Shown here: positions 1-48,059 of the stretch, one piece after another
Layout of the letters: each line of letters opens with the position of its first letter
How positions within the stretch are numbered: position 1 is the first letter of the stretch
Virus record (IMG/VR): IMGVR_UViG_3300034063_001075
Span: 1-64,000 of that record
From: a virus
Length of the DNA: 64,000 nucleotides
Direction: 5' to 3' (one strand)
Position numbers and translations under genes: made by a program
Notes under the pieces: generated by a model
Database searches by the model: none
Told to the model about the DNA's origin: nothing
The model's input: the letters and a program-made list of their open reading frames with translations, nothing else

Positions 1-2572
1 CGCTAGCAGGCTGCGGTGCTACGACAGGTGGAGCAGCTTCGGGTTCGTCTTCTTTGGCTTTGAGTCCCTCTTCAACGGCGTCTAGTCCGGCCTTGCCGAG
101 AGCCGCTTTCAGGTCTTCTACGGCTTTGTTAGTCGCCACGTTTTCTTCGGATATCTGTGTGGCTAGCTCGACCGTCGGCTCCTCTTTGTAATCCTGCGGG
201 TTCTGCGCGAAGTCTTGTTTCAGGCCCTCGAAAATCTGTTCGGGAGATTCTTCGAGGGGCATCGTGTAACCCACAAATTCGGCAAGTCTTTCCGCCTGTG
301 CGGTATCCCCGCGATTAACAAGAGCTTCGTGAAGTTCTTGAACGCCTTGTAGTGCTTCAGGAGTTCTTTGGATTAGGCCGTCTGCGTTGACGTTATCGCG
401 AGCGGCACTCCAAACTTTGAACGTGTCAGCATCAGCCAAGTCTGTAGCGTTGCTCGGTAGCTTCTGAACTTCGCTTACCCATTGTTTGTCCTGCTCGACA
501 ATCTTCTGCTCATCAGGCGAAAGAGGCTGGTTTTGCATGACCTTCTGTTGAACAGCCTTGCGCTGTTCTTCGTCAGGTCTCTCGACTGTTACGGTCGGCG
601 TAGACGATGTAGTTGGTGTGGCTGAAACGGGTTTTGTCTCCTGTGCTGTTTCGAGACTGTCTAGCGCCTTGTTTGCTGCTTCGATTGTTTTGGAAAGAAC
701 ATCCCTATCCACGTCCTCGCCCACTGTTTCCGACTTCTCGCGTAGCACGGAAGCGGTCATTGGGCTTCCTGTCTGCTCTGCTTGATCGGCACGACGTCTC
801 AAAAGAACGGAAGCAAATTTCTGAATACCATCCCTAGCCACGTTCACGCCGCCGCCGAGAAGACCTCCGTACACAGCGGCTTGCACACTTTCGCCGACAA
901 TGTCTCCCAGCGTCGCTTCGGGGCGATAAGACGCAATGCCGACCATGCCTTGAACAAACTGATCGATACCTTCTTCGGTAGCTTCCATCCCCGCTTCTTT
1001 GAGATACCTCCCAAGGCGGCTCTTGAAGCCTTTCGTTTTCGCGGCGGAAAACAGAGCGTCTACACCCGTTTTCCCGAAAGCAGAGGTGACGATTGCTGTG
1101 CTTACGCCAGAGGCTACTGCCGGAAGTTGGGCGCGATTCAAAGCGTCCTGCATCATTTCGTCTTCCGACATGACTCCAGCGCCTGCCTTCATGTTTTGAT
1201 CCATGTTGGCTTCGTACGCGTCGATGAACGTTCCGCCGTAAGACTGCATAGCTGATATACCAACCGAGGTTTTGAAACCCGCGTCGCTTACGATCTTGGG
1301 GAGAATGGTTCGGGCAGCTTGCGCCTGAATTGCAGGGTTTGCAATTCCTGCACCGCTGAACCCTGATGGGTTTCTAGCTGTAAGAGCATTCGCCAGTTGC
1401 CGTCCCGCAACGGCTCTTGTACCGCCAGCGACCACGCCACCCGCCAGTAAGGGGATTACTACGCTCGACGAAGTGGCTACGAAGTCTCCGGGGTCGCCTA
1501 TAACAGGCGTGGATTTTACGCCGAGAGCTTCGCGATATTGGCTTGCTTCTTCCAACCCCTCTCCAATTTTATCAGCAGTAGCGAGGAGCGATTTTGTAGT
1601 GTCGCTCGGTTTGCCGGATACAACATTGTCTACCGCAGAGGAGGCTCCAGCCGCTAACCCAATCGCAGGTTGGATAAGCGTCCCCATGAACGAATCCTTA
1701 ACGCCTGATCCGACGGCCCTCGCAAATGCGCCAACATCACCAATCTTATCCCGGTATGCGTTGACCGCATCCGCACTTGAAGCAAAGTCCCCTTGCGCTT
1801 CGAACGTTGAGAAATCACTGGTGTTTTTACGGAGCGCTTGAGCCATCCGTTCGCCTGTTGCTTCCCGATTAGCAGCAAAGTCTGCTAGAGCGCTTTGCTT
1901 CATCGCTGGGGTTGCTTCGGGGATGGAATTGATTGCGGACCTAAATTTGTTCTCGTCTAGCTGGTTATCCGGTGTGACAGCGATGCGCCCGTTTACAACC
2001 GCCCCTTGGATTTGATTGCGTGAGAGCTTTGCCAGCTTGTCTGCGGATTCCAAAAAGTTTCTGCGAACATCGGGGTCTTGGTATTCGTCTGCTAGGTCGG
2101 CGTACGCTTTCCGAAGCTGCGTTTCCTTAACTCTGATTGGGTCTTCGTTGTATCTTTGAATTTCTCCGTCCTTACCGATGCCCGTCATCCGAGCAAACGG
2201 CGAAAGTTTGTCTTCGTCCGCTATTTCGGGGAGAGGCCGGGGGTCGAATTTGTCCCAAGGCTCGAATCCGGGTCTGACGGCGTCTCCCTTTCCGTCTCCT
2301 TGAAAAAATCTCTGAGATTTAGTCGGTTCCTGTTGGGCAATAATCGCGGCTGCTTGCGAGACTTTATCTAGGTCGAATTGAACAACGCGCCCGAGAATTT
2401 CTTTACGTTTTTCCGCGTGTTTTTCGTCGGACCAAGTCGGTCCAATGCGCTTCTTCGCTTCTTCAGACCACGCATCTAAAATACTGACCTTCTTTGAAGG
2501 GTCAGCTTCCCCGAAGCGGGGGGATGCTTCGATATCAGCCCACTTCGGAAACGGGTCGGTTGGCCGAGACAT
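1..2572 (-). CDS. Large internal virion/DNA ejection protein (partial; runs off the left edge)
   Basis: ATG at 2572 (MSRPTDPFPKWADIEASPRF...), read manually as open towards position 1. Ala/Gly-rich helical segments (EAGMEATEEGIDQFVQG, GGLLGGG) are typical of podovirus-type ejection proteins. Absent from the ORF track, presumably because no stop lies in the window. Confidence 0.7.
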   Translation of the reverse strand, partial: MSRPTDPFPKWADIEASPRFGEADPSKKVSILDAWSEEAKKRIGPTWSDEKHAEKRKEILGRVVQFDLDKVSQAAAIIAQQEPTKSQRFFQGDGKGDAVRPGFEPWDKFDPRPLPEIADEDKLSPFARMTGIGKDGEIQRYNEDPIRVKETQLRKAYADLADEYQDPDVRRNFLESADKLAKLSRNQIQGAVVNGRIAVTPDNQLDENKFRSAINSIPEATPAMKQSALADFAANREATGERMAQALRKNTSDFSTFEAQGDFASSADAVNAYRDKIGDVGAFARAVGSGVKDSFMGTLIQPAIGLAAGASSAVDNVVSGKPSDTTKSLLATADKIGEGLEEASQYREALGVKSTPVIGDPGDFVATSSSVVIPLLAGGVVAGGTRAVAGRQLANALTARNPSGFSGAGIANPAIQAQAARTILPKIVSDAGFKTSVGISAMQSYGGTFIDAYEANMDQNMKAGAGVMSEDEMMQDALNRAQLPAVASGVSTAIVTSAFGKTGVDALFSAAKTKGFKSRLGRYLKEAGMEATEEGIDQFVQGMVGIASYRPEATLGDIVGESVQAAVYGGLLGGGVNVARDGIQKFASVLLRRRADQAEQTGSPMTASVLREKSETVGEDVDRDVLSKTIEAANKALDSLETAQETKPVSATPTTSSTPTVTVERPDEEQRKAVQQKVMQNQPLSPDEQKIVEQDKQWVSEVQKLPSNATDLADADTFKVWSAARDNVNADGLIQRTPEALQGVQELHEALVNRGDTAQAERLAEFVGYTMPLEESPEQIFEGLKQDFAQNPQDYKEEPTVELATQISEENVATNKAVEDLKAALGKAGLDAVEEGLKAKEDEPEAAPPVVAPQPAS

Positions 2573-7709: not shown

Positions 7710-10700
7710 TTACTCTGGTTGGCTCATTAGCACATAAGCGTATTTCGGTTCCCCATTGACGCAAACTTCGACTTGCTGAAAGTACGCGTCTTTGCCATAG
7801 GGCGGTCTAACGTCTACGTAGTTCGAGCCATTATTCACATATAAACCGCCACCGAACAGTCGGCTGTAAGCTCCGGACGAATAATTGACGTACAGAGAAC
7901 CGGGGGTGAGGGTCGAGTGGTCTCCGTTGGCATACTGAATACGAAGAGTAGTTTGCGTCAGATAACTGAAATCGTTGTTCGCTGAGGCCCGAAAAGTAGA
8001 ATTTGAGCCCTGTATTTCCATCGTTGCAAACGGGCCGCTAGAACTCCACACCTCACACTTACTTAGTGAGCCCGTCGAACGTATGCGGAAGTTTTGTTGG
8101 GCGTTAGTAGTGTATCCATACAAATAGGATTCACTCGCCTTAATCCCGCGATCTGACCAGTTATTAGAGTTGCTGAAGAGTTGTACAGAAATTTCGTTCT
8201 GCTTAGCCGACATCTTGTAATTCTGATTGTTATTACAGTAGGCCCATAAATACGCTTCGGTTTCTTTCAAACATAACTCTGCAAAGTTCTTAGAATTCTG
8301 ACCCCAGTACGTCTGAAACCCGCATTTATCAGCTTCAGCGAGCGTAGCTGCGAATCGGTCGTAAGTGTCATTACCGACGCCCCTATTACAACCTGTGTGT
8401 CGAACCGCTCTCCATGCCGCTTTTGTAGTCTGAACGTTTTCGCTGGTGGGCTCCGGAGTGATGTACCCAATAATGTCCATCGGACATCCGCTAGGGAGAC
8501 CCGCTGTGTAGTATCCCGCTTTGTCTGGAAGCGACCCTGCTCTTTCGCTTCCCTCGCGACCAAAAATAACTTCGGTGTGCGAAGTCTGCGACATGAGTAA
8601 AACTTTTCTCCGTCGGTCACCGCGCCCTATAAAAACGGGAACATAGCCTTGGCTAAAATATGTCGTATCTCCCGCTCGCACCGCCGCTCTCGCTTCGGGG
8701 CCGAGGCTTCTCAATATTTCTCTACGCTCTCGAAATTCGTCGCGGGTTTCGTACCCCCGGTTTTGTCGATCATTCCCAAGAAATTGAGCCGTCTGCGTGA
8801 AGTCGATTTTATCGTTCTTCTCCGTCATCGAGGCTCCCGCGCTTCCAGCGGGGTTGCTAGCAGGAGTAGTTTGACCTCCGCCTCCGCTATCCTGAGCGGT
8901 CCCGCCGTAAACGCGGTAATACGCTTCTTTTTCTTCGTTGCTAGCGAGTGCTGAAGGGCCCCAACCCCATTGAGAGTATGCCGGGTCGTTGCGGACGTTA
9001 TTGTCCATCCGAGCGTCGTTGTCGCTCCCAAACGGACGGTTTTCAGGTGCTTGATATCCGGAGCCGAACGACGACGGGGCCGTAGTCGGCGCAGGAGGCT
9101 CTGAAGTTGGGGCCGTAGTCGGCGCAGGAGTTGGAGTGGGTGCAGGTGCAGGTGCAGGTGCAGGTGCAGGTGCAGGTGCAGGCGCAGGTGCGGTGGCCGC
9201 TGGCGTAGGAGCAGGTGCTGGGTTTTCTGGCTGGGGGACGGGGGGAGGCGGAGTTGGTGTGGGGGCCACCGCAGGAGTAGCCGTTGGGAGAGGGGCCGTC
9301 CCGACATCCGGAACAACGGGTCCCGTTGATGGCGCAGAAATAGGTGTTGGCGCAGGCGCAGGTGTGGGTGCAGGAGCAGGAGCAGGCGTGGGAGCAGGCG
9401 CGGGTGCGGTGGGAGTCGGAGTGGGCGGAGGGGTCGGTGCGGGAGCAGGAGCAGGCGCGGGAGCAGGCGCGGGAGCAGGAGCAGGCGCGGGAGCAGGCGC
9501 GGGTGCGGGAGCAGGAGCAGGCGCGGGAGCAGGCGCGGGTGCGGGAGCAGGAGCAGGCGCGGGTGCGGGAGCAGGCGCGGGAGCGGGAGCAGGCGCGGGT
9601 GCGGGAGCAGGAGCAGGCGCGGGTGCAGGGGTCGGCGGAGTTGTGGCAGGCGCAGGGGTCGGCGGAGTTGTGGCAGGCGCGGGTGCGGGTTCCGCCGCAG
9701 GAGCCGTGGTGGGGGCGGGTGGGTTTGCGGGTTGAAGAGTTTGAGGTGCGGGAGGCGTAGCGGGTGGCGGAACGGGTACAGGTTCCGGGTTCGAGGGTGT
9801 CGGGAAAAAGGTCTGCGGAGGAGGAGGCGGGGTTGGAACTGACGTAGTCGTGGTCGCAGGTGAGGCAGATTCCGAGTCTGCTGAGTTCTGCGATTGGGTG
9901 GTTGAACTTGTCGAAGAAGAGCCAGCGCTTACAACAACTGGGACGAATAAAGTTTCGGAAGCCGTAAGGGGGGTCGGCGAAGCAGAAGAGGTTGAAGAAG
10001 GCTCAACTAGGGGTGCAGATTCGTTAAAAGTCGAGCTAGGGCGGGACGTGGGGTTAAGTTGAAAACTGCTTTCAGGTTCAAAACGAGGGAAAGGAGTCGA
10101 GATCGGTGTAAGAGCACCAAACATAGCCGACGTCTCCACCATACTAGGTGGTGCGGACTCTCCAGAACGACCCGAATCAGAGGGTCGGACGTCGCGATCT
10201 GTATTTGTGTTTTGTTGCGACGCATTGCTAGCATTATTCGAAAACGCAGATGGGAAAAACGCAGAAGGGGACATAGCCCCCATGAAAACATTTGTGGCTT
10301 CTGGAACTCCGGCGGAGATAGCGGCGGAACGGGAGTCTGGGTCCAAACGTATTGGCTCCTCGGAACGCTGTAGCGCGGGAGTTACTGGGGGTGCGGTAAC
10401 TTGAACAGGTTCTGAATTGAGTGCGGTCGATTGCGTGGAGGGGGGAGTCGGTCGCGATACTATTTCCGGAATTTCAACCGGACTTGTCGGTATGTTTAGC
10501 AGTGGGAGGGGGTTTGAATTTTGAATGGGCGGGGAAACAACTTGCGGCCCGACGTCCAGAGAAAAAAGACTCGGCGCATTTGAAGGTTTGGGTGTGAACA
10601 GCGCTTCTGCCGGAATAGAAATATCAAGGTTACCGTTTTGGAAATTCACCGGGTAACCGTTGAAAGTTAAGTTTTTAAGAGCGTCAGAAACCGCTGATTG

Positions 10701-11006
10701 AACGGCAGACTCAATCGGAGCACTTCCTGAAGATTGCCCCGAAACAGGAGCCGCTAGCATTTGTGCTACAAAAGAATCAGGAGCCCTCGAAGAGGGGGAA
10801 GCCGGGATGAACTGTTGGCCTTGATCGAATAGAAACGGAAGTTGAGGTGTCCCAATTACCGAAGGGGGAGGCGCAGGTGGCTTGGAAAACCGCGTATCGG
10901 AAACGGGGGTCTCAAGCCGACGCTCCTGTTCAACTACCGGGCTGGGTTGCCTAACAACCTGCTCCGGTAAGTTTGAAGTTTTTACAATGTCGTCTCTGTC
11001 AGCCAT
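7710..11006 (-). CDS. Pro/Ala-rich tail protein with C-terminal beta-rich (spike-like) domain
   Basis: 1098 aa; about 700 aa of Pro/Ser/Ala low complexity including (PA)n; C-terminus has short beta-strand repeats ending EVCVNGEPKYAYVLMS. Confidence 0.6.
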   Translation of the reverse strand: MADRDDIVKTSNLPEQVVRQPSPVVEQERRLETPVSDTRFSKPPAPPPSVIGTPQLPFLFDQGQQFIPASPSSRAPDSFVAQMLAAPVSGQSSGSAPIESAVQSAVSDALKNLTFNGYPVNFQNGNLDISIPAEALFTPKPSNAPSLFSLDVGPQVVSPPIQNSNPLPLLNIPTSPVEIPEIVSRPTPPSTQSTALNSEPVQVTAPPVTPALQRSEEPIRLDPDSRSAAISAGVPEATNVFMGAMSPSAFFPSAFSNNASNASQQNTNTDRDVRPSDSGRSGESAPPSMVETSAMFGALTPISTPFPRFEPESSFQLNPTSRPSSTFNESAPLVEPSSTSSASPTPLTASETLFVPVVVSAGSSSTSSTTQSQNSADSESASPATTTTSVPTPPPPPQTFFPTPSNPEPVPVPPPATPPAPQTLQPANPPAPTTAPAAEPAPAPATTPPTPAPATTPPTPAPAPAPAPAPAPAPAPAPAPAPAPAPAPAPAPAPAPAPAPAPAPAPAPAPAPAPAPAPAPAPAPTPPPTPTPTAPAPAPTPAPAPAPTPAPAPTPISAPSTGPVVPDVGTAPLPTATPAVAPTPTPPPPVPQPENPAPAPTPAATAPAPAPAPAPAPAPAPAPTPTPAPTTAPTSEPPAPTTAPSSFGSGYQAPENRPFGSDNDARMDNNVRNDPAYSQWGWGPSALASNEEKEAYYRVYGGTAQDSGGGGQTTPASNPAGSAGASMTEKNDKIDFTQTAQFLGNDRQNRGYETRDEFRERREILRSLGPEARAAVRAGDTTYFSQGYVPVFIGRGDRRRKVLLMSQTSHTEVIFGREGSERAGSLPDKAGYYTAGLPSGCPMDIIGYITPEPTSENVQTTKAAWRAVRHTGCNRGVGNDTYDRFAATLAEADKCGFQTYWGQNSKNFAELCLKETEAYLWAYCNNNQNYKMSAKQNEISVQLFSNSNNWSDRGIKASESYLYGYTTNAQQNFRIRSTGSLSKCEVWSSSGPFATMEIQGSNSTFRASANNDFSYLTQTTLRIQYANGDHSTLTPGSLYVNYSSGAYSRLFGGGLYVNNGSNYVDVRPPYGKDAYFQQVEVCVNGEPKYAYVLMSQPE
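9105..9690 (-). repeat. (Pro-Ala)n coding repeat
   Basis: GCAGGT/GCAGGC/GCGGGA/GCGGGT hexamer runs on the plus strand encode PAPAPA on the minus strand. Confidence 0.95.
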
Positions 11007-11011: not shown

Positions 11012-14000
11012 CTACGCAACAAGGTCCGGAAGTTTCACTTCAACAACCTCCTCCACCCAAACGCCGAGCCGCCAATGTTCTGCGCTTCGGGCAACCTCAA
11101 CCCACTGGCCCCAAGGAAGCCCAGTAGGTTCAGTCGCCGGAATAACAACTAGCTCTCCCCCAACGTTCGCAACGATTTGAGGGTGCAAACATTTACCCAC
11201 GCTGATTCTCACAACCTCCTTGGAAGTAGATTCGGTCGAGCTATCTGCGGTGGTGGTTGAAGCGTTGTTCGTCTGGGAAGAAGATGTTCCCGAGGAAACC
11301 GAATTAGTTGAGGACTGCGATTGCCCACTCTGCTGCCCCTGCGTCTGGGACTGACTTGTTTGTTGTCCTTGGGTCTGGGAGTTTGCCGCAACGTTGGTGT
11401 TGCTATCCGACGTGCTGCTCGAAGAAGAATTCGAAGTTCCGTTAGAGTTACTCTGGGTAGTTGTTGTCGAATTGTTGGTCCCTGAAGACGAAGAAACCGA
11501 AGACGAGTTTGTCGTTGAAGCGGTTTGAGAAGAAGACTGCCCCGAAGACTGCGATGTAGTGGCGACTTGCGAAGTACCGTTTGAAGTCGTGCTAGCAGTA
11601 GAGGTTCCTGAAGACTGCGACTGGGACTGACTCTGGCTTTGTCCTTGCGACTGGGACTGACTCTGACTCTGACTCTGGCCTTGCGATTGGGACTGGGCTT
11701 GGCCTTGGCTTTGGGACTGGCTTTGCCCCTGAGACTGGCTCTGACTCTGGCCTTGGCTTTGGGACTGGCTTTGCCCCTGAGACTGGCTCTGACTCTGGCC
11801 TTGCGATTGGGACTGGGCTTGGCCTTGGCTTTGGGACTGGCTTTGCCCCTGAGACTGGCTCTGGCTTTGCCCCTGAGACTGACTCTGGCTTTGCCCCTGA
11901 GACTGCCCCTGCGTATTTGTTTGGCTTTGCCCCTGAGATTGATTTTGACCTTGGTTCTGGCTCTGCGACTGAGACTGACTATTAGAAGACGAAGTCCCGT
12001 TAGAAGTTGAGGTAGATGAACCCGTTGAGGTTGAAGTGCTGCTTGAAGTCGAAGTTCCGGTAGATGTGGACGTCGAGGTTGATGTTCCCGTTGAAGTAGA
12101 AGTTCCGGTAGAAGTTGACGAAGACGTCGAGCTACTCGTTGAAGTTGAGCTTCCTGTAGAACTCCCACTAGAAGTCGAAGAGGAGGTCGAACTAGAAGTC
12201 GAAGTTCCGCTGCTGGTGGAGCTAGAAGTCGAAGAGGAGGTCGAACTAGAAGTCGAAGAGGAGGTCGAACTAGAAGTCGATGAAGACGTTCCGCTGCTGG
12301 TAGAGCTAGAACTAGAAGTCGAAGTTCCGCTGCTGGTGGAGCTAGAAGTCGAAGAAGACGTTGAAGAAGAGGTAGAACTGGATGTTCCGCTGCTGGTAGA
12401 GCTAGAACTAGAAGTCGATGAAGACGTTCCACTGCTGGTAGAGCTAGAAGTCGATGAAGACGTTCCGCTTGACGTCGAGCTAGATGTTCCGCTGCTGGTA
12501 GAGCTAGAAGTCGAAGAGGAAGTCGAGCTTCCACTGCTAGTAGAGCTAGAAGTCGAAGAAGACGTTGAAGAAGAGGTAGAACTGGATGTTCCGCTGCTGG
12601 TAGAGCTAGAAGTCGAAGAGGAAGTCGAGCTAGAAGTAGAACTGGATGTTCCGCTGCTGGTAGAGGTACCGCTTGAGGTCGAGGTGGAGGAAGTGGAGGA
12701 GGTGGAAGTGGATGTTCCTGTATTAGTCGAAGTAGAAGTCGAATTTCCCGTGGAAGTTGACGTCCCTGTGGAGGTGGAAGTGGAAGTCGAGGTGGAGGTT
12801 GACGTTCCGGTGGATGTTGAAGTTCCGGTAGAAGTAGACGTCGAAGTAGACGTTCCGGTGGAAGTCGATGTCCCGGTGGAAGTGGAAGTGGAAGTTCCGG
12901 TAGATGTGGACGTTGAAGTCGATGTCCCGGTGGAAGTGGAAGTTCCGGTAGATGTCGAAGTGGAAGTTCCAGTGGAGGTAGACGTGCTTGTAGACGTAGA
13001 AGTTCCAGTGGAAGTAGATGTCCCGGTTGACGTTGAAGTAGAGGTAGAGGTCGAGGTGCTGGTGGACGTTCCTGTCGAAGTGCTGGTGGACGTTCCTGTC
13101 GAAGTCCCGGTAGACGTCGAGGTGCTAGTGGAGGTGCTTGTTCCGGTTGAGGTAGATGTTCCGGTGGAAGTTGATGTCCCCGTAGTCGTAGAAGTGGACG
13201 TCGAGGTGCTGGTGGACGTTCCTGTCGAGGTAGAGGTCGAGGTAGAGGTCGAGGTGCTGGTGGACGTTCCGGTAGAGGTAGACGTTCCAGTTGAGGTAGA
13301 TGTCGAAGTGCTGGTAGACGTTCCAGTTGAGGTAGATGTTCCGGTAGAGGTAGACGTTCCAGTTGAGGTAGACGTTCCTGTCGTTGTGCTTGTACTCGTC
13401 GAAGTAGACGTTCCGGTGGAAGTGTTAGTTCCTGTCGTTGTGCTTGTACCCGTCGAAGTGTTAGTTCCGCTCGTTGTGCCACTCGATGTTCCCGAAGAAC
13501 TACTGCTTCCGGAACTTTGAACGGTCGCGTTTGAAGTTCGGTTTTCTGTCGGGTCGCTGGTCAGAGGAGCGCCTCTGCGAGATGACGTGACCGAATCTCT
13601 TGAACCAGTTTGGGTGGTAGACTGGCTCTGCCCTTGAGATTGGTTCTGAGACTGGCTCTGCCCCTGAGACTGGTTCTGGCTCTGCGACTGACTTTGTCCT
13701 TGGGATTGAGACTGGCCTTGGCTCTGGCTCTGGGACTGGCTCTGGCTCTGTCCTTGAGATTGAGACTGGCCTTGGCTCTGACTTTGAGACTGGGATTGGT
13801 TCTGGCTCTGCGACTGACTCTGAGACTGGGATTGGTTCTGGCTCTGGGATTGGTTTTGGCTCTGAGACTGGCTCTGGCTCTGAGACTGGCCTTGGCTCTG
13901 CGACTGACTCTGAGACTGGCTCTGAGACTGACTCTGGCCCTGAGACTGGCCTTGGCTCTGACTTTGAGACTGGCTCTGGTTTTGGCTCTGGCTCTGGGAC

Positions 14001-16981
14001 TGGCCTTGGCTCTGCGACTGACTCTGAGACTGGCTTTGAGACTGACTCTGGTTCTGGCTCTGCGACTGACTTTGTCCTTGGGATTGAGATTGTGACTGAT
14101 TCTGGCTCTGAGATTGGTTTTGGCTTTGAGACTGGCTCTGCCCTTGCGACTGACTCTGAGACTGGCTCTGCGACTGGTTCTGCGATTGGCTCTGACTCTG
14201 AGACTGGCTCTGCCCTTGCGACTGACTCTGAGACTGACTCTGCGACTGGTTCTGCGATTGGCTCTGAGACTGGCCTTGGCTCTGCGACTGGCTTTGGTTC
14301 TGGCTCTGCGACTGATTTTGAGACTGGGACTGGCCTTGGCTCTGACTTTGAGACTGGCTCTGAGACTGGCTCTGGCTTTGTCCCTGCGTCTGACTCTGCC
14401 CTTGGTTCTGCGACTGACTCTGACTTTGTCCTTGGCTTTGACTCTGGGACTGAGACTGGCTCTGAGATTGCGATTGAGACTGCGACTGGCTCTGCCCTTG
14501 GCTCTGGGACTGGCTCTGCCCTTGGCTCTGGGACTGACTCTGGGACTGGGCTTGGCCTTGGCTTTGGGACTGGCTCTGCCCTTGGCTCTGGGACTGACTC
14601 TGGGACTGGCTCTGCCCTTGTGATTGAGACTGCGATTGAGACTGGCTCTGCGACTGGCTTTGAGACTGTGATTGGGACTGGCTCTGCGACTGGCTTTGAG
14701 ACTGTGATTGGGACTGGCTCTGTCCCTGCGACTGTGATTGGGACTGGCTCTGTCCCTGCGACTGGGACTGACTCTGATTCTGTCCTTGGGATTGGTTTTG
14801 GGACTGGCTCTGCGACTGCCCTTGGCTCTGGGACTGGCTCTGAGACTGGCCTTGGCTCTGCGACTGCCCTTGGCTCTGACTTTGAGACTGGCTCTGACTC
14901 TGTCCCTGAGATTGATTTTGGGACTGACTCTGAGACTGGCCCTGTCCCTGAGATTGGTTTTGGGACTGACTCTGCGACTGGCTTTGCCCCTGAGACTGGC
15001 TTTGCCCCTGAGACTGGTTTTGAGACTGGCTCTGGCTCTGGGACTGGCTCTGCCCTTGACTCTGGTTCTGGCTCTGGCTCTGAGACTGACTTTGCCCTTG
15101 GGACTGGTTCTGACTTTGTGACTGATTCTGGCCCTGCGTCTGAGACTGCGATGTAGAGGATCCGGTTGAAGAGGAGGTTCCGTTAGAGGTCCCAGTAGAG
15201 TTCGTGCTTGAAACAGAGTTAAATACCGTATTCGAATTCGACGTCGCGGAGGTATTCGAAACAGTATTCGAGTTTGTGTTCGAATTGGTATTCGAATTAG
15301 ACGAAGAGTTCGACGTCGAGTTAGAAGTAGAATTTGTATTTGAAACCGTATTCGAAGTGGACGAAGAGTTTGACGACGAGTTTGTGTTTGAAAAAGATGT
15401 TGAACTAGTAGTAGCGGAAGTTGTCGAAGAGCTATTTGAAGTCGAAGTTGAGTTAGTAAGTGCGTTCGAATTCGAAAGAATATTCGACGTAGTAAGAGAA
15501 TTAGAAGTAGAGCTTACAGAGGACGTGGTAGAAGTCGTGTTAGTGTTGCTAGAAGAAGATATGGAATTGTTGCTCCCGCTCGTCGTTGAGGATGAATTGC
15601 CCGTAGACGAAACACTTGAAGTGCCACTCGAAGTAGACTGCGACGTATTCGAAATAGTCCCGCTTGAAGTTCCAGTCGAAAAATTGGTAGCGGAACTTGT
15701 GGAGTTAACTGTAGACGTACCCGAAGAAAGACTTTGAGTATTTGTCGTAGACTGATTGCTTCCGCTCGTTGTCGAATTTGATATAACCGAGCTATTGGTT
15801 GTAGAGGAGTTTGTTCCCGTGCTCGAAGTAGTGAGGTTGCTGGACGATGTAGAATTATTTGAACCTTCCGAAGAAACTTCGGACTCCGAATGAGTTGAAC
15901 TGTTTCTAGTAATTTCTATCTCAACAGCCGTAGAAAAAGACTGGGCGTTGAAGATTTGAGCAGAAGGCTGATTTGTTGGAGGGCCGTAGTAAAAAGACCG
16001 AGTAAAGCGAGCGAGCAACGCACCGTCAGGAGCCGAGCGATACCGGGGAATAACCACCGGGGTTTCTGTCCCGACAACCTCCAACTCAAGCAATTCATCG
16101 GGGAGAGACGCTTCCCGGCGACGGCCATACCAAACTTGAGGTTGAGGGAGGACAATACTGCTAGCAACGCGAACGGAACGGAAGCTATCGACAGGGTCTA
16201 CCTCAGTAGCGATAACACGGTTTTGAGCCGTAATCTGAAGACCGCCTTCGGTCCCAGCAGATACAACCTTACGCTCAATGCGAATCGGAATACCCAGACG
16301 CTGATCAATCTGAGTTCCGACCAGTGTCGGCCAATCAGAATCGGCAAGTTCCGACTTCTCCAAGACGGACTTCCCACCCCCAAGCGGCTTGATGCTAGCA
16401 TCGATGACATCTTCGCCAAGTTGGATAGGTGTATCTGAATCAACGACTTGCTGCGTCGTATTGACCTTTACCCCACCGAAATCTTTTACCCAACCCTCAC
16501 CTGTCTGGGCAGGCCCCGGAAGCGTCTCGTAAACCCGAACAACCTTTACGAAAAGACTGTCCAAGGTTTGGTCATCAATCCTCTGGACTTCCTGCTCTAC
16601 GAGCTTGGCTGACGAATAAACAGGGTCGGGGGTTCCTGCTGCTAGCGGGGCGTAATCCTCTCGGGGGATTACGTACGACCGGATATAAATCGGGTGGTCT
16701 TTTGAGTTCCCCGAATACTTGATCGCGAAGTTGTACGCGTCTTGGTCTACGCGGTCTGTAGCGTAAACATTTCGAATCCAATTACCATCAATAGGCTGCT
16801 GGAAAACTAGTTTTAGATTAGGGTAGCGGAAGGTGTCCGGATGCGCGGTCCCGTACTCTTTGGCTACATACCCCGGAAGACGCGTATCCTCCTCCTGCAC
16901 CAACACCAAATCCGAAATATTCGGCGTCGGGTACGAGACGACTACTTCATTCGGACTAGGGTTACGAGGGCTCCGCATCAT
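11012..16981 (-). CDS. Giant tail protein with about 1570-aa alternating Ser-X repeat region (predicted beta-hairpin tube former)
   Basis: 1989-aa ORF; folded N-terminal ~350 aa and C-terminal ~65 aa flank SN/SQ/ST dipeptide tracts that are symmetric about RRGAPLTSDPTE. Confidence 0.8.
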   Translation of the reverse strand: MMRSPRNPSPNEVVVSYPTPNISDLVLVQEEDTRLPGYVAKEYGTAHPDTFRYPNLKLVFQQPIDGNWIRNVYATDRVDQDAYNFAIKYSGNSKDHPIYIRSYVIPREDYAPLAAGTPDPVYSSAKLVEQEVQRIDDQTLDSLFVKVVRVYETLPGPAQTGEGWVKDFGGVKVNTTQQVVDSDTPIQLGEDVIDASIKPLGGGKSVLEKSELADSDWPTLVGTQIDQRLGIPIRIERKVVSAGTEGGLQITAQNRVIATEVDPVDSFRSVRVASSIVLPQPQVWYGRRREASLPDELLELEVVGTETPVVIPRYRSAPDGALLARFTRSFYYGPPTNQPSAQIFNAQSFSTAVEIEITRNSSTHSESEVSSEGSNNSTSSSNLTTSSTGTNSSTTNSSVISNSTTSGSNQSTTNTQSLSSGTSTVNSTSSATNFSTGTSSGTISNTSQSTSSGTSSVSSTGNSSSTTSGSNNSISSSSNTNTTSTTSSVSSTSNSLTTSNILSNSNALTNSTSTSNSSSTTSATTSSTSFSNTNSSSNSSSTSNTVSNTNSTSNSTSNSSSNSNTNSNTNSNTVSNTSATSNSNTVFNSVSSTNSTGTSNGTSSSTGSSTSQSQTQGQNQSQSQNQSQGQSQSQSQSQNQSQGQSQSQSQSQSQNQSQGQSQSQGQSQSQSQSQNQSQGQGQSQSQSQNQSQGQSQSQSQSQSQGQSQSQGQSQSQSQSQGQSQSQSQNQSQGQNQSQSQSQGQSQSQSQSQGQSQSQSQSQSQSQSQSQSQSQSQSQSQSQSQSQSQGQSQSQSQSQSQGQSQSQSQGQAQSQSQSQSQGQSQSQSQGQSQSQSQSQSQSQSQSQSQSQGQSQSQSQNQGQSQTQGQSQSQSQSQSQSQSQGQSQSQNQSQSQNQSQSQSQGQSQSQSQNQSQSQSQSQSQGQSQSQSQSQSQNQSQSQSQSQSQGQSQSQSQNQSQSQNQSQSQSQGQSQSQSQNQSQSQSQSQSQSQSQGQSQSQSQNQSQSQSQSQGQSQGQSQSQSQSQSQSQSQGQSQSQSQSQSQNQSQSQNQSQSQSQSQSQNQSQSQSQSQGQSQSQGQSQSQSQSQSQGQSQSQGQSQSQSQNQSQGQSQSQNQSQGQSQSTTQTGSRDSVTSSRRGAPLTSDPTENRTSNATVQSSGSSSSSGTSSGTTSGTNTSTGTSTTTGTNTSTGTSTSTSTSTTTGTSTSTGTSTSTGTSTSTGTSTSTSTSTSTGTSTSTGTSTSTSTSTSTSTSTGTSTSTSTSTSTTTGTSTSTGTSTSTGTSTSTSTSTSTGTSTGTSTSTSTGTSTSTSTSTSTSTSTGTSTSTGTSTSTSTSTSTGTSTSTSTGTSTSTGTSTSTSTSTGTSTSTSTGTSTSTGTSTSTSTSTGTSTSTGTSTSTSTSTSTSTGTSTSTGNSTSTSTNTGTSTSTSSTSSTSTSSGTSTSSGTSSSTSSSTSSSTSSSTSSGTSSSTSSSTSSSTSSSTSSGSSTSSSTSSSTSSGTSSSTSSGTSSSTSSSTSSGTSSSTSSSSSTSSGTSSSTSSSTSSSTSSSTSSGTSTSSSSSTSSGTSSSTSSSTSSSTSSSTSSSTSSSTSSGTSTSSSTSSSTSSGSSTGSSTSTSSSTSSSTSTGTSTSTGTSTSTSTSTGTSTSSSTSTSTGSSTSTSNGTSSSNSQSQSQSQNQGQNQSQGQSQTNTQGQSQGQSQSQSQGQSQSQSQGQSQSQSQGQAQSQSQGQSQSQSQGQSQSQSQGQSQSQSQGQSQSQSQGQAQSQSQGQSQSQSQSQSQGQSQSQSQSQSSGTSTASTTSNGTSQVATTSQSSGQSSSQTASTTNSSSVSSSSGTNNSTTTTQSNSNGTSNSSSSSTSDSNTNVAANSQTQGQQTSQSQTQGQQSGQSQSSTNSVSSGTSSSQTNNASTTTADSSTESTSKEVVRISVGKCLHPQIVANVGGELVVIPATEPTGLPWGQWVEVARSAEHWRLGVWVEEVVEVKLPDLVA
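11220..15900 (-). repeat. SQ / ST / SS / SN dipeptide coding repeats
   Basis: Hexamer periodicity with diversified synonymous codons. Confidence 0.95.
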
Positions 16982-16998: not shown

Positions 16999-17694
16999 CT
17001 AGACGTGCAATTTAACAAGATCAGCTTCTGCGTCTCTTCTGCGGACTAACCCTTTGAACTTTGTGCCAACCCACAAGCGTTTCATCCGACGGATAAGGCC
17101 CTCAATTTGTTCGATGTCCCCAACGCGTACGGCTTCTCGAAGCATTGCCATTTCTTTTCGACGCGAACCAGTCAAAGAAGACCCCCGGTTAAAGACAATA
17201 GAAACCAGAGCCCCCAGAACGTCCGGATGGAGTTTCTCAGAACCGGGATACGTTTTCAAAGTAAGATCGACAAATCGTGGAAGCGTAGAGTGCCGAAATA
17301 CTTGCAGGGCTGACTCCCAAGGAATACGGATATCGGAAAGACTTTTAATTAGTGTCGAAGCCCGGACCCCCTTGACCGACAAAGTAGCGGCAAGGCGCTT
17401 GAATGTGACGCTCGACATCAGATTCCCACCCCAATCGCGGGAAAACTGCATGGGGGTGTTGTAACCAAGATCATACCCGATCCCAATAGTAACCCCCGAC
17501 GCGAGCCCCGGCCACGTGGGTTTAGAAAGATAGCGTTCGTAATAAGCTTTAGAACTGACCTCGTACTTTACGATCAGGTCGAACGCCTTGTCGGAAATCG
17601 CTGGCTTGCTAACAGATTGAGGAGGCGCTGTGGGAGAGTCCCAGAAAGACTTAACCCAGTCGGAGAATTGCGTGAAGAGGTCGAACCGCGCCAT
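16999..17694 (-). CDS. Lysozyme/muramidase (endolysin, T4-lysozyme-like fold)
   Basis: LIVKYE...SGVTIGIGYDLG; ALVSIVFNRG; GLVRRRDAEADL motifs. Confidence 0.85.
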   Translation of the reverse strand: MARFDLFTQFSDWVKSFWDSPTAPPQSVSKPAISDKAFDLIVKYEVSSKAYYERYLSKPTWPGLASGVTIGIGYDLGYNTPMQFSRDWGGNLMSSVTFKRLAATLSVKGVRASTLIKSLSDIRIPWESALQVFRHSTLPRFVDLTLKTYPGSEKLHPDVLGALVSIVFNRGSSLTGSRRKEMAMLREAVRVGDIEQIEGLIRRMKRLWVGTKFKGLVRRRDAEADLVKLHV

Positions 17695-27898: not shown

Positions 27899-29659
27899 TT
27901 AAAAAGGCAAGCGCAACTCTTGTTTAGAGAGATTCACAGGCCGGGAGGCGGCGACTCGGTTGAACTTCTCTAGCAGCTTCCGCTTCGTAGCTCGTTGCCC
28001 TCCGAAGTCATCCCCGTAACCTGTTGAATCCGCCGTCATAGCATGACGCTGACGGGCCAAATCCAAAAGGATGAACGCGGCATCTGCTACGTCGGGGGAC
28101 TTCCCTGTGCGCTCTTTCATGTCAGACTTCGGCTCCACCCGGAGACGGAGGCTACCGCTCTTATCTGTAATATAGCGTCGCTCGCACATCTCCCGTGCTA
28201 GCTCCTTGCAGACGCCTCGAATCTGCCCGGTTCGCATCATCTCCTTTGCGGAAAACCAAATCTCAGTGACTCGGTTTCCGTACCGCTCATCAGAAGGCGT
28301 ACGGTCAGTAAGTGAAACTGGGAGTTTGCTAGCTCGGCCCCCAAACTGAACTCGCAAAACATCCCGGCTCCACAAAGCATCGACAATGTCACCGAAAGGG
28401 TTTCCGGCTCCTGTGGCGTCGTAAGCGGCATTTCGGGCAGACACCCCTTCCTGCTCGCAACGAGCCCGGAACTGGCGGACGATCTGGTAAGCCCTCGGCT
28501 CCTTCGAAGACACGTCCTCTACGAGGTGCTCATAACGATCGAAGCAAACGGTGCGAAGTTTAGTATTCGCATCGATTCCGACATAGCCAAAGTAAAGGAT
28601 ACTTCTGTCGCCGCCGTTGGTGAAAGCAGGGTCGAGTGCAGCAATAGGGGTGGGTGGGGAAAGCCAGAGCGGGGGAGCATCCGCTTGGGTCCGCACAATA
28701 TCGGCTTCGGCGTAAATACAGTCTTCAGAACCGCTCGGACACCAGAACCCACGAAACATCCGCCAGAAAGCGACTGATTTCTCGCCAAATTTTTGACGGG
28801 CGTCCTCCAACTTGTCTTCCGTAATCATCCACGGATAAACGGTGCGACCCGCTAGGATGTTTGGGCTCTTGATTCCGTCCAAATGGATGCAAATTCCTCG
28901 CTCGGTCTCCCACTCGTCATCGTTGACGGTCACCGTAGCCCACCCATTCTTAGGCTGGGCCAAAAGACCGAACGCGTCGTAGTAAGAGTTGGGGTTTCCT
29001 AGCCCGACCAACTGAAAATACGGGTTCGCCGACAGGTTTGAATAGGCTGCTTGTAGGATCGCTTCCGACAACTCAGGCAACTCGTCCGCGATGAGAAAAA
29101 CCCTCTTCTGCTTCAGACCAATCAACTTGCCAATCGCCTCTTTTTCGCGCTTCCGCTCGGCGGCGACTAGTGTGATCCCCGCTTTATCGGACAAAGCATT
29201 GCCCTCGGCGTCTTCAAAGCGAATCTGGCCGACTGAATCAACCAGCTTACCGGGAAGCCCCGGAACTGCCTGAAAATATTCTCTGACAGAGCCCCAAATA
29301 CGTTTTCGTGACTCCTTCAGGGTGGTCGAAGTGACCAAAATCATTGTCTCGGTGGGGGCGCACAGCCAATTCACAATGCTCCAAACCGCAAAAAAATCAG
29401 TTTTTCCCGAGCTAGCGCACCCGGCAACGGCCAGATAGTTTGAACGGCAAGCCCCGTCCAGCATCTGCTCCGCCCACGGATGCCAAGTCCACGGTTTGGG
29501 ACTGCCGGGATGCCAAAGAACATTGACAATGTTCCGAAAATGCCCAGCCTTACCGAGACCGCCTTGCTCGACGGTTCTACCATGCCGGAAGCAATAAAGC
29601 TCAATGTTCAGCGCATCTATGCCTTCGGGCCATTCTCGCCCATATCGGGTAATCCCCAT
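27899..29659 (-). CDS. terL: Terminase large subunit
   Basis: Walker A GCASSGKT, Walker B LIADE, GLGNP coupling motif, nuclease ALDPA and SPDVADA. Confidence 0.92.
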   Translation of the reverse strand: MGITRYGREWPEGIDALNIELYCFRHGRTVEQGGLGKAGHFRNIVNVLWHPGSPKPWTWHPWAEQMLDGACRSNYLAVAGCASSGKTDFFAVWSIVNWLCAPTETMILVTSTTLKESRKRIWGSVREYFQAVPGLPGKLVDSVGQIRFEDAEGNALSDKAGITLVAAERKREKEAIGKLIGLKQKRVFLIADELPELSEAILQAAYSNLSANPYFQLVGLGNPNSYYDAFGLLAQPKNGWATVTVNDDEWETERGICIHLDGIKSPNILAGRTVYPWMITEDKLEDARQKFGEKSVAFWRMFRGFWCPSGSEDCIYAEADIVRTQADAPPLWLSPPTPIAALDPAFTNGGDRSILYFGYVGIDANTKLRTVCFDRYEHLVEDVSSKEPRAYQIVRQFRARCEQEGVSARNAAYDATGAGNPFGDIVDALWSRDVLRVQFGGRASKLPVSLTDRTPSDERYGNRVTEIWFSAKEMMRTGQIRGVCKELAREMCERRYITDKSGSLRLRVEPKSDMKERTGKSPDVADAAFILLDLARQRHAMTADSTGYGDDFGGQRATKRKLLEKFNRVAASRPVNLSKQELRLPF

Positions 29660-30022: not shown

Positions 30023-30071
30023 TTGTTTGAACAGATGGTCGCATCTCCTGTCATATACCAGTACCAAGCCA

Positions 30072-31295
30072 ATGAAGACTGACGTGTTATCCTACCCGCA
30101 AACTATACCTACACCGCTGGGTCCGGTGAAAATCTATTGCTGCCGCAACGGTTTCAAAACCGAGTACGTCGTAAACTGGAGCATAGCGAAGCAACGAAAG
30201 CGGGAAAAATTCGCGGATGAACTCAAAGCGCTAAACCGTGCTCAGGAAGTAGCCAAAGACTTGAGCAAAGGGCGCATTGAGAGAACGGCGATCTCACCCG
30301 CAGATATTGCCGAGTTCATGGCGGCTAAACAGCTACTTAGTGGGGGTTCTTTGCTCCGAGCCGCTGAGTTTTTCGTGGAAAGCAACACAGGCCTCGTTCA
30401 GAAAACGGTCAAAGAAGTATGTGAACATCACTTGGCAGAACTCGCCATAGGGAGTAGCGAACGTCACAAAGCCACAACAAAGTGGAGGCACGGGGTTATC
30501 AACGAGGTCTTTGAAAACCGTATCATTAGCTCAATAACAAGGGACGAAATCATCGACTTCCTTAAAAAGGCGAAATGCCGATCCAAGCAGAAAGCAGGAG
30601 TGGCGATGAGCGGCAAAAGCAAAAACAACCTAGCGAACGCCTTCGGTGCGGTCTGGAACCACGCCCAAACCCGAATGAGCGCCCTACCTAAAAATATGCC
30701 ACACGCAGCGACAGAACTACCGACATTCGAGGAATCCCGAGAGAAACGGATATACACACCGGAACAAATGACAGCCATACTCCATTGGTTGGAAGATGAG
30801 GTCACCGCCCATCGCATCCCCAAATGGGTTCTCGCCACCGTAGCAATCAAAGCCTTTACAGGCATTCGAACGGCAGAGATTGAAAGACTTCAGTGGGAAG
30901 ACGTGCGTTCCGACGCGGGTACAATCCTCCTCCATAGGGGGCTGACCAAAACTCAGGAGGGACGTATCCTCCCCATCCGACCAGCCCTAAACGAATGGCT
31001 TCAACTTTGCGCGAAGAGGTCGGGCAAGGTAGCAGAAGACCAATTCTTCACGTACACAAAAAAAATCGCCGAAGGCGTGTTCGGCAAAGGGGCTCCGTGG
31101 GAGAAGAACGCTTTGCGTCATAGCTTCATTTCTTACTCAATGGCCGAAACCGGAAACGCGGCTACCACGGCAGACATTAGCGGCAACTCAATCCGGATGG
31201 TTAAAGCCGTTTATCAAACCTTGGCCGTCCCGAGCGATGCTCATAAATACTTCAACATCAAACCGAAAGGAGGTGTAGGTGACCTGCCGTCTTGA
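30072..31295 (+). CDS. int: Tyrosine integrase
   Basis: TGIRTAEI (R), TKT (K), NALRHSF, GNS, KAVY (Y) catalytic pattern. Confidence 0.9.
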   Translation: MKTDVLSYPQTIPTPLGPVKIYCCRNGFKTEYVVNWSIAKQRKREKFADELKALNRAQEVAKDLSKGRIERTAISPADIAEFMAAKQLLSGGSLLRAAEFFVESNTGLVQKTVKEVCEHHLAELAIGSSERHKATTKWRHGVINEVFENRIISSITRDEIIDFLKKAKCRSKQKAGVAMSGKSKNNLANAFGAVWNHAQTRMSALPKNMPHAATELPTFEESREKRIYTPEQMTAILHWLEDEVTAHRIPKWVLATVAIKAFTGIRTAEIERLQWEDVRSDAGTILLHRGLTKTQEGRILPIRPALNEWLQLCAKRSGKVAEDQFFTYTKKIAEGVFGKGAPWEKNALRHSFISYSMAETGNAATTADISGNSIRMVKAVYQTLAVPSDAHKYFNIKPKGGVGDLPS

Positions 31296-46805: not shown

Positions 46806-46852
46806 TCGATCAAAGGACGCTAGCAGCAAATCACTGATTTGCAAGAGGTTTG

Positions 46853-46880
46853 TGATACCTGCTAGCAGGTTGGGGATAAG
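46853..46880 (+). promoter_or_regulatory. Early promoter motif, copy 1
   Basis: TGATAC-N14-GGGATAAG with ATG 7 nt downstream; overlaps the palindrome ACCTGCTAGCAGGT. Confidence 0.65.
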
Positions 46881-46887
46881 TCGCTGT

Positions 46888-48053: not shown

Positions 48054-48059
48054 AACCCG

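Follow-up and report, generated by a model that had tools for sequence, protein, structure and literature searches.

The window, a stretch of 64,000 nucleotides of viral DNA (positions 1 to 64,000 of IMG/VR record IMGVR_UViG_3300034063_001075), contains a gene whose product, P0001, carries an insert of 1,565 residues of Ser, Gln and Thr. The two halves of this insert (782 residues) are equal to within one residue. What kind of structure could be encoded by two equal, all-polar halves, and what might it do for the phage? A preliminary description of the locus had interpreted the insert as a self-measuring beta-hairpin that forms an oligomeric tail or ejection tube. We therefore examined the insert itself, its relatives, the underlying DNA and the known systems that it resembles.

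The Gene and Its Product

The gene belongs to the late structural operon of an uncultured lake phage whose genome is 76 kb. Its features are as follows.

11012..16981, minus strand: whole gene, encoding 1989 amino acids (P0001)
15917..16981, minus strand: conserved N-terminal multi-domain all-beta part, amino acids 1-355, from phmmer, AlphaFold2 of the homologue P0004 and blastp; closed by the exit strand AVEI (amino acids 352-355)
13571..15916, minus strand: arm 1 (outbound), amino acids 356-1137, 782 residues; irregular S/T/N, then (S/G/N)-Q dipeptides from 612 to 1120
13622..15148, minus strand: outbound SQ tract, amino acids 612-1120
13538..13573, minus strand: conserved tip motif, G1137-APLTSDPTEN-R1148 (family consensus xG|[AV]PLxSDPxTNR)
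11222..13570, minus strand: arm 2 (return), amino acids 1138-1920, 783 residues; (S/G)-T dipeptides, then SSST units, the SQ tract and a mixed part
11615..11977, minus strand: return SQ tract, amino acids 1669-1789
11012..11221, minus strand: re-entry strand KEVVRISV-GKCLH and conserved C-terminal motif (in the family, IPATxPxxLPxG...EHWRxGVWVxExxEV), amino acids 1921-1989 plus the stop codon

The gene is flanked by that of a lysozyme-domain protein (16999-17694) and by a giant ORF of 4173 amino acids. A neighboring protein of 1098 amino acids contains a long (AP)n and Pro-rich spacer. Pfam and PHROGs searches with the N- and C-terminal domains and with 35 neighboring proteins assigned no structural family to P0001.

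Residues 358 to 1922 are 75-100% S/T/Q/G/N, and the sole Pro/charge-rich island within the insert is the central motif RRGAPLTSDPTE (1135-1146, with P1139 and P1144). The positions quoted earlier for AVEIEIT (352-358), EVVRISV (1922-1928), Q612, Q1669 and the two prolines were all correct, and the earlier statement that this only Pro/charge-rich break lies at the midpoint agrees with arms of 782 and 783 residues by family anchors. The arms alternate with a period of two residues. Between 612 and 1120 of arm 1, Q occupies every even position (255/255), and S (192), G (37) and N (22) occur at odd positions; between 1160 and 1789 of arm 2, odd positions are T or Q and even positions are S or G. 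This face parity is free of slips in both arms and is kept for more than 600 residues. Both faces are polar (S/G/N versus Q/T): the regular tracts are almost without hydrophobic residues, and the regular arms consist of S/Q/T/G/N only, without His.

The Insert Is Placed at the Tip of a Beta-Hairpin

When the N-terminal domain was compared with 1.84 billion representatives using phmmer, 871 cluster representatives were matched at E ≤ 1e-3 (best 8.5e-72), 93 of them at E < 1e-30. The N- and C-terminal parts of P0001 are homologous, in one frame, to this large, uncharacterized phage family, and the C-terminus (...IPATEPTGLPWGQW...EHWRLGVWVEEVVEV) agrees with the tails of most family matches, after a variable middle. 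The first ~160 residues are the most conserved portion of the family protein. Other searches returned little: among 50,697 phage records, tblastn matched nothing to the N-domain, a locus search with the single protein P0001 found no relatives, and a protein search with the C-terminal 75 residues found no matches. Foldseek found nothing in the PDB at E ≤ 1e-3, the only BFVD match was an uncharacterized protein, the VIA wide fold search gave Z ≤ 6.8 (noise range), a profile search of PDB sequences gave chance matches only, and unnamed viral clusters were all that the ESM Atlas offered. Compared with gp27-like hub, Tal and gpJ proteins, residues 1-78 and 79-157 of the P0004 model matched many hub/baseplate chains at Z 4.4-5.3, which is within the tool's noise range.

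The AlphaFold2 model of the short homologue P0004 has a pLDDT of 91. Its strands 364-375 and 382-395, which are homologous to the exit and re-entry strands, are consecutive and are linked by a six-residue turn, GSGGGN. Because the two strands are adjacent in this model, the insert is located at the tip of a beta-hairpin. The turn is likewise six residues in the 448-aa proteins of L010-L012; such short-turn relatives (448-466 aa) are encoded on contigs of 66-71 kb that resemble this phage in genome size and synteny. For P0031, a member with a low-complexity insert, AlphaFold2 predicted the base strands on both sides of the insert (367-384 and 621-638) with confidence, and residues 384-622 as coil with a pLDDT of about 25. 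Coil of low pLDDT would be expected for low-complexity sequence, yet it lends no support to a structure of the arms. For a trimer of P0004 residues 218-466, complex prediction scored 0.40 (mark 0.42), a value that speaks neither for nor against such an assembly.

Other family members contain FN3 and He_PIG Ig-like domains above the Pfam cut-offs and F5/8 type C (discoidin-like) domains just below them, modules that are typical of exposed host-binding proteins. The family may accordingly be pictured as virion-surface proteins in which the N-terminal anchor and the C-terminal beta domain are conserved and the middle is hypervariable, probably associated with the tail and used for host recognition. 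Alternatively, P0001 might be an internal virion protein, like the core proteins of podoviruses, that is stored unfolded, ejected and refolded into a conduit or anchor spanning the cell envelope. The order of a lysozyme-domain gene and a giant ORF on either side of the P0001 gene is reminiscent of podovirus internal-protein modules, and a chain that is polar throughout and has no hydrophobic core could traverse a narrow channel. Against this, the FN3, Ig-like and discoidin-like modules of the family point to exposure, conservation is highest in the N-terminal ~160 residues, as it is in the virion-attachment domains of fibers, and a span of 0.25 micrometers is far beyond any cell envelope. We consider an internal role very improbable.

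Both Arms Change Length Together

Members of the low-complexity hairpin subfamily were recognized by four motifs: the exit xxE[YHI], the tip, the return PKCL[HR], and EHW. P0001 carries all four, with GKCLH in place of PKCL, and its arms are balanced about the tip Gly. With these motif-defined anchors, balance was expressed as a relation in which twice the position of the tip Gly plus 1 equals exit + return - 9. The relation is exact in 12 proteins, namely P0001, ten proteins from independent viral contigs and one protein-database entry (P0176), and holds within ±1 in 4 more. The 16 balanced proteins have arms of 128, 140, 145, 152, 161, 165, 184, 185, 196, 272, 420, 576 or 782 residues; the 15 relatives of P0001 cover 128 to 576, and a single clade stays balanced across 140 to 576. 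When the center was defined independently, asymmetry was below 5% in 20 of 28 proteins (binomial p 2e-20). The test that had been set beforehand, whether both arms change length together in homologues, was thus answered in the affirmative.

In the unbalanced proteins the arms differ by about 32, 40, 48 and 128 residues, all of them whole numbers of 8-residue units. For three of these four proteins, a closely similar one is present in the set: L041, the sister of P0048, is balanced, and L042, the sister of L059, is off by ~32. In P0177 (1070 aa), no recognizable tip motif was found at the expected center.

Since the halves are equal in P0001 and in 15 relatives, the chain very probably folds back as a two-stranded beta ribbon. 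We regard folding back into an extremely long ribbon of two strands as well supported. The regular arms offer no hydrophobic residues and hence no evident stabilizer for a ribbon of 780 residues.

Glycines Are Mirrored about the Center

The family anchors I355 (exit strand), G1137 (tip) and G1929 (GKCL) define arms of 782 + 783 residues and i + j = 2275, with an axis between G1137 and A1138. A scan of P0001 for Gly-Gly mirror pairs over 900 odd sums showed a unique peak at i + j = 2285, corresponding to an axis between S1142 and D1143, with 22 pairs from 437/1848 to 1117/1168 (about 680 residues). The runner-up register had 15 pairs, the local mean was 8.4 (sd 3.0), and shift controls gave at most 15 pairs. 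The hypergeometric p value was 1.1e-5 overall and 1.8e-6 inside residues 612-1125. Further, the mean z of the Gly mirror in 24 homologues was 2.86 at the exact anchor-defined register. The mirror is real and far beyond chance.

The Gly mirror of P0001 (2285) and the family-anchored register (2275) lie 10 residues apart, and a middle stretch of the protein prefers 2273; a single continuous register is therefore an incomplete picture. The mirror symmetry that was first described holds, in the equal arms and in the glycines, and only its axis has to be moved: the sum of 2281 proposed at that time is off by 4-6 residues, and pairing of i with 2281-i yields only 2 Gly-Gly pairs, which led us to reject that register.

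P0001 has 196 Q:T and 55 Q:S pairs, with only 4 Q:Q; in homologues, G is opposite G, T opposite S, and Q opposite T, S or N. The return SQ tract lies opposite the Asn-rich part of arm 1 (about 486-616), as had been noted. The outbound and return SQ tracts abut with hardly any overlap: a 6-residue gap separates them at 2275, and only 4 Q-Q pairs arise at 2285.

The insert could instead be an intrinsically disordered loop, perhaps carrying glycans, which acts as an entropic spacer or brush in the manner of serine-rich repeat adhesins and does no more than present the central motif; the motif would then lie near the middle because a loop reaches furthest at its midpoint. Its composition is like that of disordered linkers, AlphaFold2 predicted coil for P0031, and the (AP)n/Pro-rich spacer of the 1098-aa neighbor indicates that this phage tolerates long low-complexity spacers. 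The reach of a flexible loop, however, has a flat optimum, which fails to explain balance to one residue in 16 proteins with 13 arm lengths. Nor does disorder explain a unique Gly-Gly mirror register or a two-residue face parity without slips over more than 600 residues in non-repetitive DNA. A disordered loop thus appears unlikely, and we favor paired arms.

The Repeat DNA Is Not Repetitive

The DNA encoding the repeats of P0001 uses all six Ser codons, and its longest exact repeat is 77 nt. A DNA palindrome was rejected as the source of the mirror: there are no inverted repeats, apart from a single 19-nt pair that is 79% complementary. In four lake metagenome runs, which come from four studies, Logan contigs were 100% identical to the P0001 gene and were broken within the repeat; in three runs they skip 60 nt, from 14504 to 14565, with a 45-nt repeat flanking the skip. 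Because short-read contigs fail to span the repeat, the total length of the gene rests on one assembly and on internal symmetry.

These breaks and the skip, together with the several unbalanced homologues, are what could be cited for the symmetry being an artifact of metagenome assembly from repetitive DNA, or a chance product of low complexity. Against this, the longest exact repeat is shorter than the terminal overlap of the record (127 nt), and collapse or expansion would ruin balance rather than produce it. Moreover, the exact arm relation recurs in ten independent viral contigs and a database protein, and the glycine pairs of P0001 outnumber those of every shift control. An artifact is barely credible.

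A Surface Fiber Is Favored over a DNA Tube

The best explanation as a whole, to which we assign a probability of about 0.6, is a surface protein with a fold-back two-stranded beta ribbon that is bundled into a fiber or needle for host contact. In one subfamily, two very long all-polar arms would have grown out from the tip of a beta-hairpin in the C-terminal domain. The arms, antiparallel and in fixed register, would form the ribbon, with the conserved tip of 12-20 residues as its cap; glycines and faces of big versus small residues would hold the register. Length would be set genetically, through matched expansion of different repeats in both arms, and the ribbon of P0001 would measure ~0.25 micrometers at 0.33-0.35 nm per residue if the strands follow the fiber axis. 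Ribbons of several subunits may bundle into a thin fiber or needle that holds the tip far from the virion, where it would first touch the host. A point against this picture is the conservation of the tip motif, whereas receptor-binding tips usually vary.

The preliminary description had arrived at a different structure, in which six or twelve hairpins close into a hollow, polar-lined beta-barrel serving as a tail or ejection tube for DNA, ~200-260 nm long and self-measured, that replaces the tube and tape-measure proteins. Hairpin topology and strict arm balance are what a barrel needs, both faces of the hairpin are polar, and the second Gly register, with its 10-residue offset, could mark the neighboring chain in a closed sheet. 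Further, PHROGs and Pfam searches of the 76-kb genome revealed no tube, sheath or tape-measure family, as had been stated for the window; the same libraries also miss the capsid and portal of this phage, so the absence is weak evidence and means little for a tube.

Relatives with the same synteny (the 66-71 kb contigs) encode versions with the short turn only. DNA delivery in the family is therefore independent of the hairpin, and the hairpin is not the family's conduit. A six-fold variation of arm length among close relatives is usual for fibers and unusual for a conduit, and the adhesion-type modules of family members also speak against a tube. No partner was seen to scale with the arms: whatever the arm length, the ORFs immediately downstream in the relatives encode about 200-750 aa. 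What remains of the self-measuring hairpin is its antiparallel, in-register arms and their paired expansion, and the 200-260 nm oligomeric DNA tube is without support. Accordingly, a fiber is more likely than a DNA tube, which we judge distinctly unlikely; more doubtful still is its full form, in which an all-polar hollow beta nanotube, built from one hairpin per subunit, carries the DNA, paired repeat numbers set its length, tube, sheath and tape-measure proteins are dispensed with, and the offset Gly register is an inter-chain seam.

If the arms pair, P0001 would represent a naturally occurring all-polar beta ribbon, up to about 0.25 micrometers long and formed by a single chain, whose length can be programmed genetically. 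Sequence of the kind commonly written off as disordered low complexity can hold a code that is exact to the residue, with equal arms, mirrored glycines and face parity, and that is invisible to present structure predictors and domain libraries. For phage biology, the fiber would imply a simple rule that links the number of repeats in a gene with how far an adsorption organelle of abundant lake phages extends. In protein design, it is a possible template for polar beta nanofibers whose length is controlled by paired repeats.

Comparison with Known Systems

Serine-rich repeat adhesins of the GspB, Fap1 and SraP type have stalks of hundreds to thousands of Ser-x residues that project a binding region. 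These stalks are single-pass, glycosylated, dependent on an accessory Sec system and anchored to the wall, whereas P0001 is a balanced two-arm phage protein, and its C-terminus (...VEVKLPDLVA) is without the LPXTG of the adhesins. Beta-pore-forming toxins (aerolysin, alpha-haemolysin and anthrax protective antigen) share with P0001 the two-residue alternation and a hairpin that emerges from a folded domain and returns to it. Their stems are far shorter and alternate between polar and hydrophobic residues that face lipid; in contrast, both faces of P0001 are polar.

In the lower-collar tubes of phi29 gp11 and P68, 12 hairpins form a 24-stranded barrel, and P0001 is similar in that one polar-rich beta-hairpin per subunit could build a long hollow structure. 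The phi29 and P68 hairpins are short, of fixed length and essential to the tail channel, unlike those of the P0001 family, which range from a six-residue turn to arms of 782 residues. No phi29 gp11 or P68 lower-collar fold was listed among the matches of Foldseek (PDB) and VIA wide.

The closest known analogue of the P0001 hairpin is the needle of phage T4 gp37, which is to our knowledge the only solved fold-back needle. Bartual and colleagues reportedly described it in 2010 as six-stranded. In gp37, the tip of the T4 long tail fiber, the needle D11 is inserted in the collar D10 (residues 811-881 plus 1010-1026); the chain runs out to the distal tip and back, forming an elongated trimeric beta needle with the receptor-contacting tip at the turn, and glycines of the stem are essential for integrity (PMC6957217). 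P0001 likewise makes an out-and-back excursion from a base domain, with its tip at the turn. gp37 was absent, by sequence as well as by fold, from the matches that Foldseek (PDB), VIA wide and the profile search of PDB sequences listed. The gp37 needle has a core of hydrophobic residues and His-bound iron (HxH, seven Fe sites), in contrast to the P0001 arms, which have neither His nor hydrophobic residues. Further, the gp37 arms are about 60 residues long, compared with 128-782 residues in the P0001 subfamily; if the arms of P0001 pair, its length per arm would be ~twelve times that of the gp37 needle.

Sequence pattern of the low-complexity insert

The gene at 11012-16981 (- strand) encodes a protein of 1989 aa, in which residues 358-1922 are nearly only S, T, Q, G and N. 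When we re-checked this protein, the positions quoted in the preliminary description, which had read the insert as a mirror-symmetric hairpin, were all right. The sole Pro/charge-rich island of the insert, RRGAPLTSDPTE (aa 1135-1146), forms the tip, where the outbound arm (arm 1; aa 356-1137, 782 residues) meets the return arm (arm 2; aa 1138-1920, 783 residues). From aa 612 to 1120, every one of the 255 even positions is Q, and odd positions carry S (192), G (37) and N (22). Between aa 1160 and 1789, odd positions are T or Q and even positions S or G. Because alternation is strict in both arms, the large faces meet at any odd mirror sum (i+j of residues facing each other across the arms). There were zero slips in face parity across more than 600 residues.

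The DNA of the gene is not simple: tandem units detected by TRF match one another at only 60-90%, Ser is written with all six codons and the longest exact repeat is 77 nt. We found no inverted DNA repeat in the gene. Further, a Gly codon read in reverse complement no longer encodes Gly, and therefore the mirror belongs to the protein, not to the DNA. In three of the four lake runs, contigs skip 60 nt at window 14504-14565 (20 aa of the arm-1 Ser-Gln tract), flanked by a 45-nt repeat; the gap reflects either a genuine length variant with unbalanced arms or a shortcut in the k=31 graph.

Arm balance in relatives

A pattern scan of IMG/VR for EHWxxG[IV]W, a motif of the low-complexity subfamily, together with earlier searches, yielded 28 distinct proteins of this subfamily. 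Four elements were common to all of them: an exit xxE[YHI], a return PKCL[HR], a central island xG|[AV]PLxSDPxTNR and two low-complexity arms. When the centre was defined as the richest non-low-complexity island, arm asymmetry was below 5% in 20 of the 28 proteins (binomial p 2e-20), and the arm lengths correlated (Pearson r 0.89, the 1989-aa protein left out). When the conserved tip Gly was taken as the centre, the relation 2 × pos(G) + 1 = exit + return - 9 was exact in 11 proteins, including the 1989-aa protein, and held within ±1 in four more. P0176, a homologue from a separate protein database, also fitted exactly, with Asp at the tip-Gly position. Thus, both arms change length together in homologues, as the preliminary description had anticipated. 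The balanced arm lengths were 128, 140, 145, 152, 161, 165, 184, 185, 196, 272, 420, 576 and 782 residues, and in a single clade (L045, L051, L061, L055, L036 and L060) arms ranged from 140 to 576 residues, all balanced.

In four clear exceptions, the arm-length difference was a whole number of octapeptide units (approximately 32, 40, 48 and 128 residues). For three of the four, the set contains a close relative (the sister of P0048, L041, is balanced; that of L059, L042, is off by approximately 32). Either these assemblies have collapsed or the unbalanced variants are transient.

Near-identical proteins on different contigs (L034/L046, L059/L042 and P0048/L041) share one arm and differ in the other by approximately 48-156 residues. 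Such single-arm differences could stem from collapsed assembly, or the unbalanced proteins may be natural intermediates in the growth of the arms.

Glycine mirror and register

We counted glycines opposite glycines at all mirror sums of the 1989-aa protein. One maximum stood out: i+j=2285 had 22 pairs, the outermost being 437/1848 and the innermost 1117/1168, and the runner-up among 900 odd sums had 15 pairs. The hypergeometric p was 1.1e-5; for the regular tracts, in which a glycine lay opposite 19 of 37 arm-1 glycines, it was 1.8e-6. The mirror symmetry of the insert is thus confirmed, but the axis of 2281 proposed in the preliminary description, at which only 2 Gly pairs occur, had to be corrected. 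At 2285, the residue opposite Q was T in 196 cases, S in 55 and another Q in only 4, and the Ser-Gln tracts of the two arms abutted at equal height without overlap.

In 24 homologues, the mean Gly-Gly z reached its maximum (2.86; null sd approximately 0.2) exactly at the anchor-defined register, and lesser peaks were mostly at the 8-residue spacing of the repeat period. At this register, G lay opposite G (16/20 in homologue L041), T opposite S, S opposite T, and Q opposite T, S or N.

The family anchors give a register of 2275 for the 1989-aa protein (I355 opposite S1920; axis G1137|A1138). The Gly-mirror axis, which bisects the 12-residue tip motif, therefore lies 10 residues off, whereas in the homologues both axes coincide. 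Residues ~760-1000 locally prefer 2273. The offset may come from 10-residue bulges near the base and the tip that compensate each other, or the Gly levels may mark a second, inter-chain neighbour.

Hairpin topology and form of the arms

A phmmer search of 1.84 billion cluster representatives using aa 1-358 as the query returned 871 matches (protein lengths 94-3330 aa), in most of which a hypervariable middle precedes a shared C-terminal motif, IPATxP...WRxGxWV.... In some family members, FN3 or He_PIG Ig-like domains exceed the Pfam cut-offs, and in some, F5/8 type C domains fall just under them. The AlphaFold2 model of homologue P0004 (466 aa) was all-beta and multi-domain (pLDDT 91). By blastp alignment, the re-entry strand of the 1989-aa protein corresponds to P0004 386-397, within strand 382-395; the exit strand, short of which the alignment stops, was put on strand 364-375 by position. 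These P0004 strands are consecutive, with the turn GSGGGN between them, and by this model the low-complexity insert therefore emerges from the tip of a family-fold beta-hairpin. In the AlphaFold2 model of P0031, a low-complexity member, the base strands (367-384 and 621-638, 18 residues each) were confident and the arms were coil (pLDDT ~25).

Arms forming a disordered loop are very hard to reconcile with the strict balance and the residue-level mirror, which argue that the arms are paired antiparallel and in register. With a hairpin at the base and a period of two residues, they would most naturally form a two-stranded beta ribbon. The hairpin interpretation of the preliminary description is thus well supported by the P0004 strand topology, the arm balance and the Gly mirror.

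The same description proposed that such ribbons close into a DNA-conducting tube. Tube, sheath and tape-measure genes were indeed undetected; this is weak evidence, as the capsid and portal of this phage escape the libraries too. Against a tube, relatives with the same gene order and genomes of 66-71 kb have versions of 448-466 aa with a short turn here, close relatives vary six-fold in arm length, other family members contain adhesion modules and no neighbouring gene scales with arm length. The tube is therefore not supported, although it keeps a low probability. We favour, with a probability of roughly 0.6, a register-locked fold-back ribbon fibre, in which a long fold-back fibre or needle would project the conserved tip. 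Being conserved, the tip sequence points to a structural cap or docking site, and less to a variable surface for receptor binding.

The nearest solved analogue is the trimeric T4 gp37 needle, in which the chain runs out from collar domain D10 (811-881 + 1010-1026) and back again as domain D11, with the tip at the turn and essential stem glycines (PMC6957217). The insert is likewise an excursion from a base domain with its tip at the turn. However, the gp37 arms comprise ~60 residues, compared with 782 here, and the iron-His and hydrophobic core of gp37 are both missing in these arms. Sequence and fold searches found no similarity to gp37. The design would add a striking new variant to the fold-back needles of the gp37 type, directly testable by expression of short members and long-read sequencing.

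The protein does not belong with the phi29 gp11 and P68 collars or the stems of pore-forming toxins, with which it has only the idea of a hairpin per subunit in common; the hydrophobic alternation of toxins is absent from its arms. Serine-rich repeat adhesins share Ser-x repeats, but their stalks are single-pass, and membership was rejected.

Genomic context

The full IMG/VR virus record comprises 76,033 bp, of which the window is the first 64 kb. Exactly 127 bp are repeated at its ends (window 1-127, genome 75907-76033) and tagged 'direct terminal repeat'. The usual maximum k-mer overlap in circular short-read assembly is 127 bp, and the repeat looks like such an overlap rather than a true terminal repeat. 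As assembled, the genome is probably either circular or circularly permuted. Identical DNA was present in at least 13 lake-water or freshwater metagenome runs (2016-2024).

Genes of the late operon, in order from the terminase, followed by other genes (window coordinates unless stated)
27899-29659: terminase (weak phrog_2 match)
after the terminase: 753-aa protein, portal-sized
after the 753-aa protein: 432-aa protein, the most highly conserved among relatives
between the 432-aa and lysozyme-domain proteins: several unknown proteins
16999-17694, -: 231-aa protein with a phage-lysozyme domain, directly upstream of the 1989-aa gene
11012-16981, -: the 1989-aa protein
7710-11006, -: 1098-aa protein, immediately downstream of the 1989-aa gene
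between the 1098-aa protein and the 4173-aa ORF: five small ORFs
2-2572 (-) + L027:1957-11820 (-) (L027, the stretch into which the ORF continues) = genome 65960..2608: 4173-aa ORF, closing the operon and spanning the record ends
30027-31295, +: tyrosine-integrase-like gene (phrog_1, 9e-27)
46654-47976, 47982-48950, 53474-54613, +: two CobS/MoxR-type AAA+ ATPases (phrog_249, PF07728), one followed by a phrog_1909 protein

The phage-lysozyme domain (PF00959; 24 bits vs cut-off 22.3) is C-terminal, and its gene is located in the structural operon, not in a lysis cassette. The N-terminal third of the 1098-aa protein is Pro/Ser-rich; the protein also has ~250 residues made up nearly entirely of (AP)n and TP repeats, and its C-terminal domain (~400 residues) contains Cys. 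This protein had no match in Pfam or PHROG; partial homologues in relatives (440-530 aa) are without the AP tract. The only family match of the 4173-aa ORF was phrog_3170 (unknown function), at residues 155-311 of its distal part, and the ORF could encode a giant internal or ejected protein. The CobS/MoxR-type ATPase genes may constitute a cobaltochelatase-like auxiliary module. Further, the integrase-like gene, in divergent orientation to the late operon at its terminase end, suggests a temperate lifestyle.
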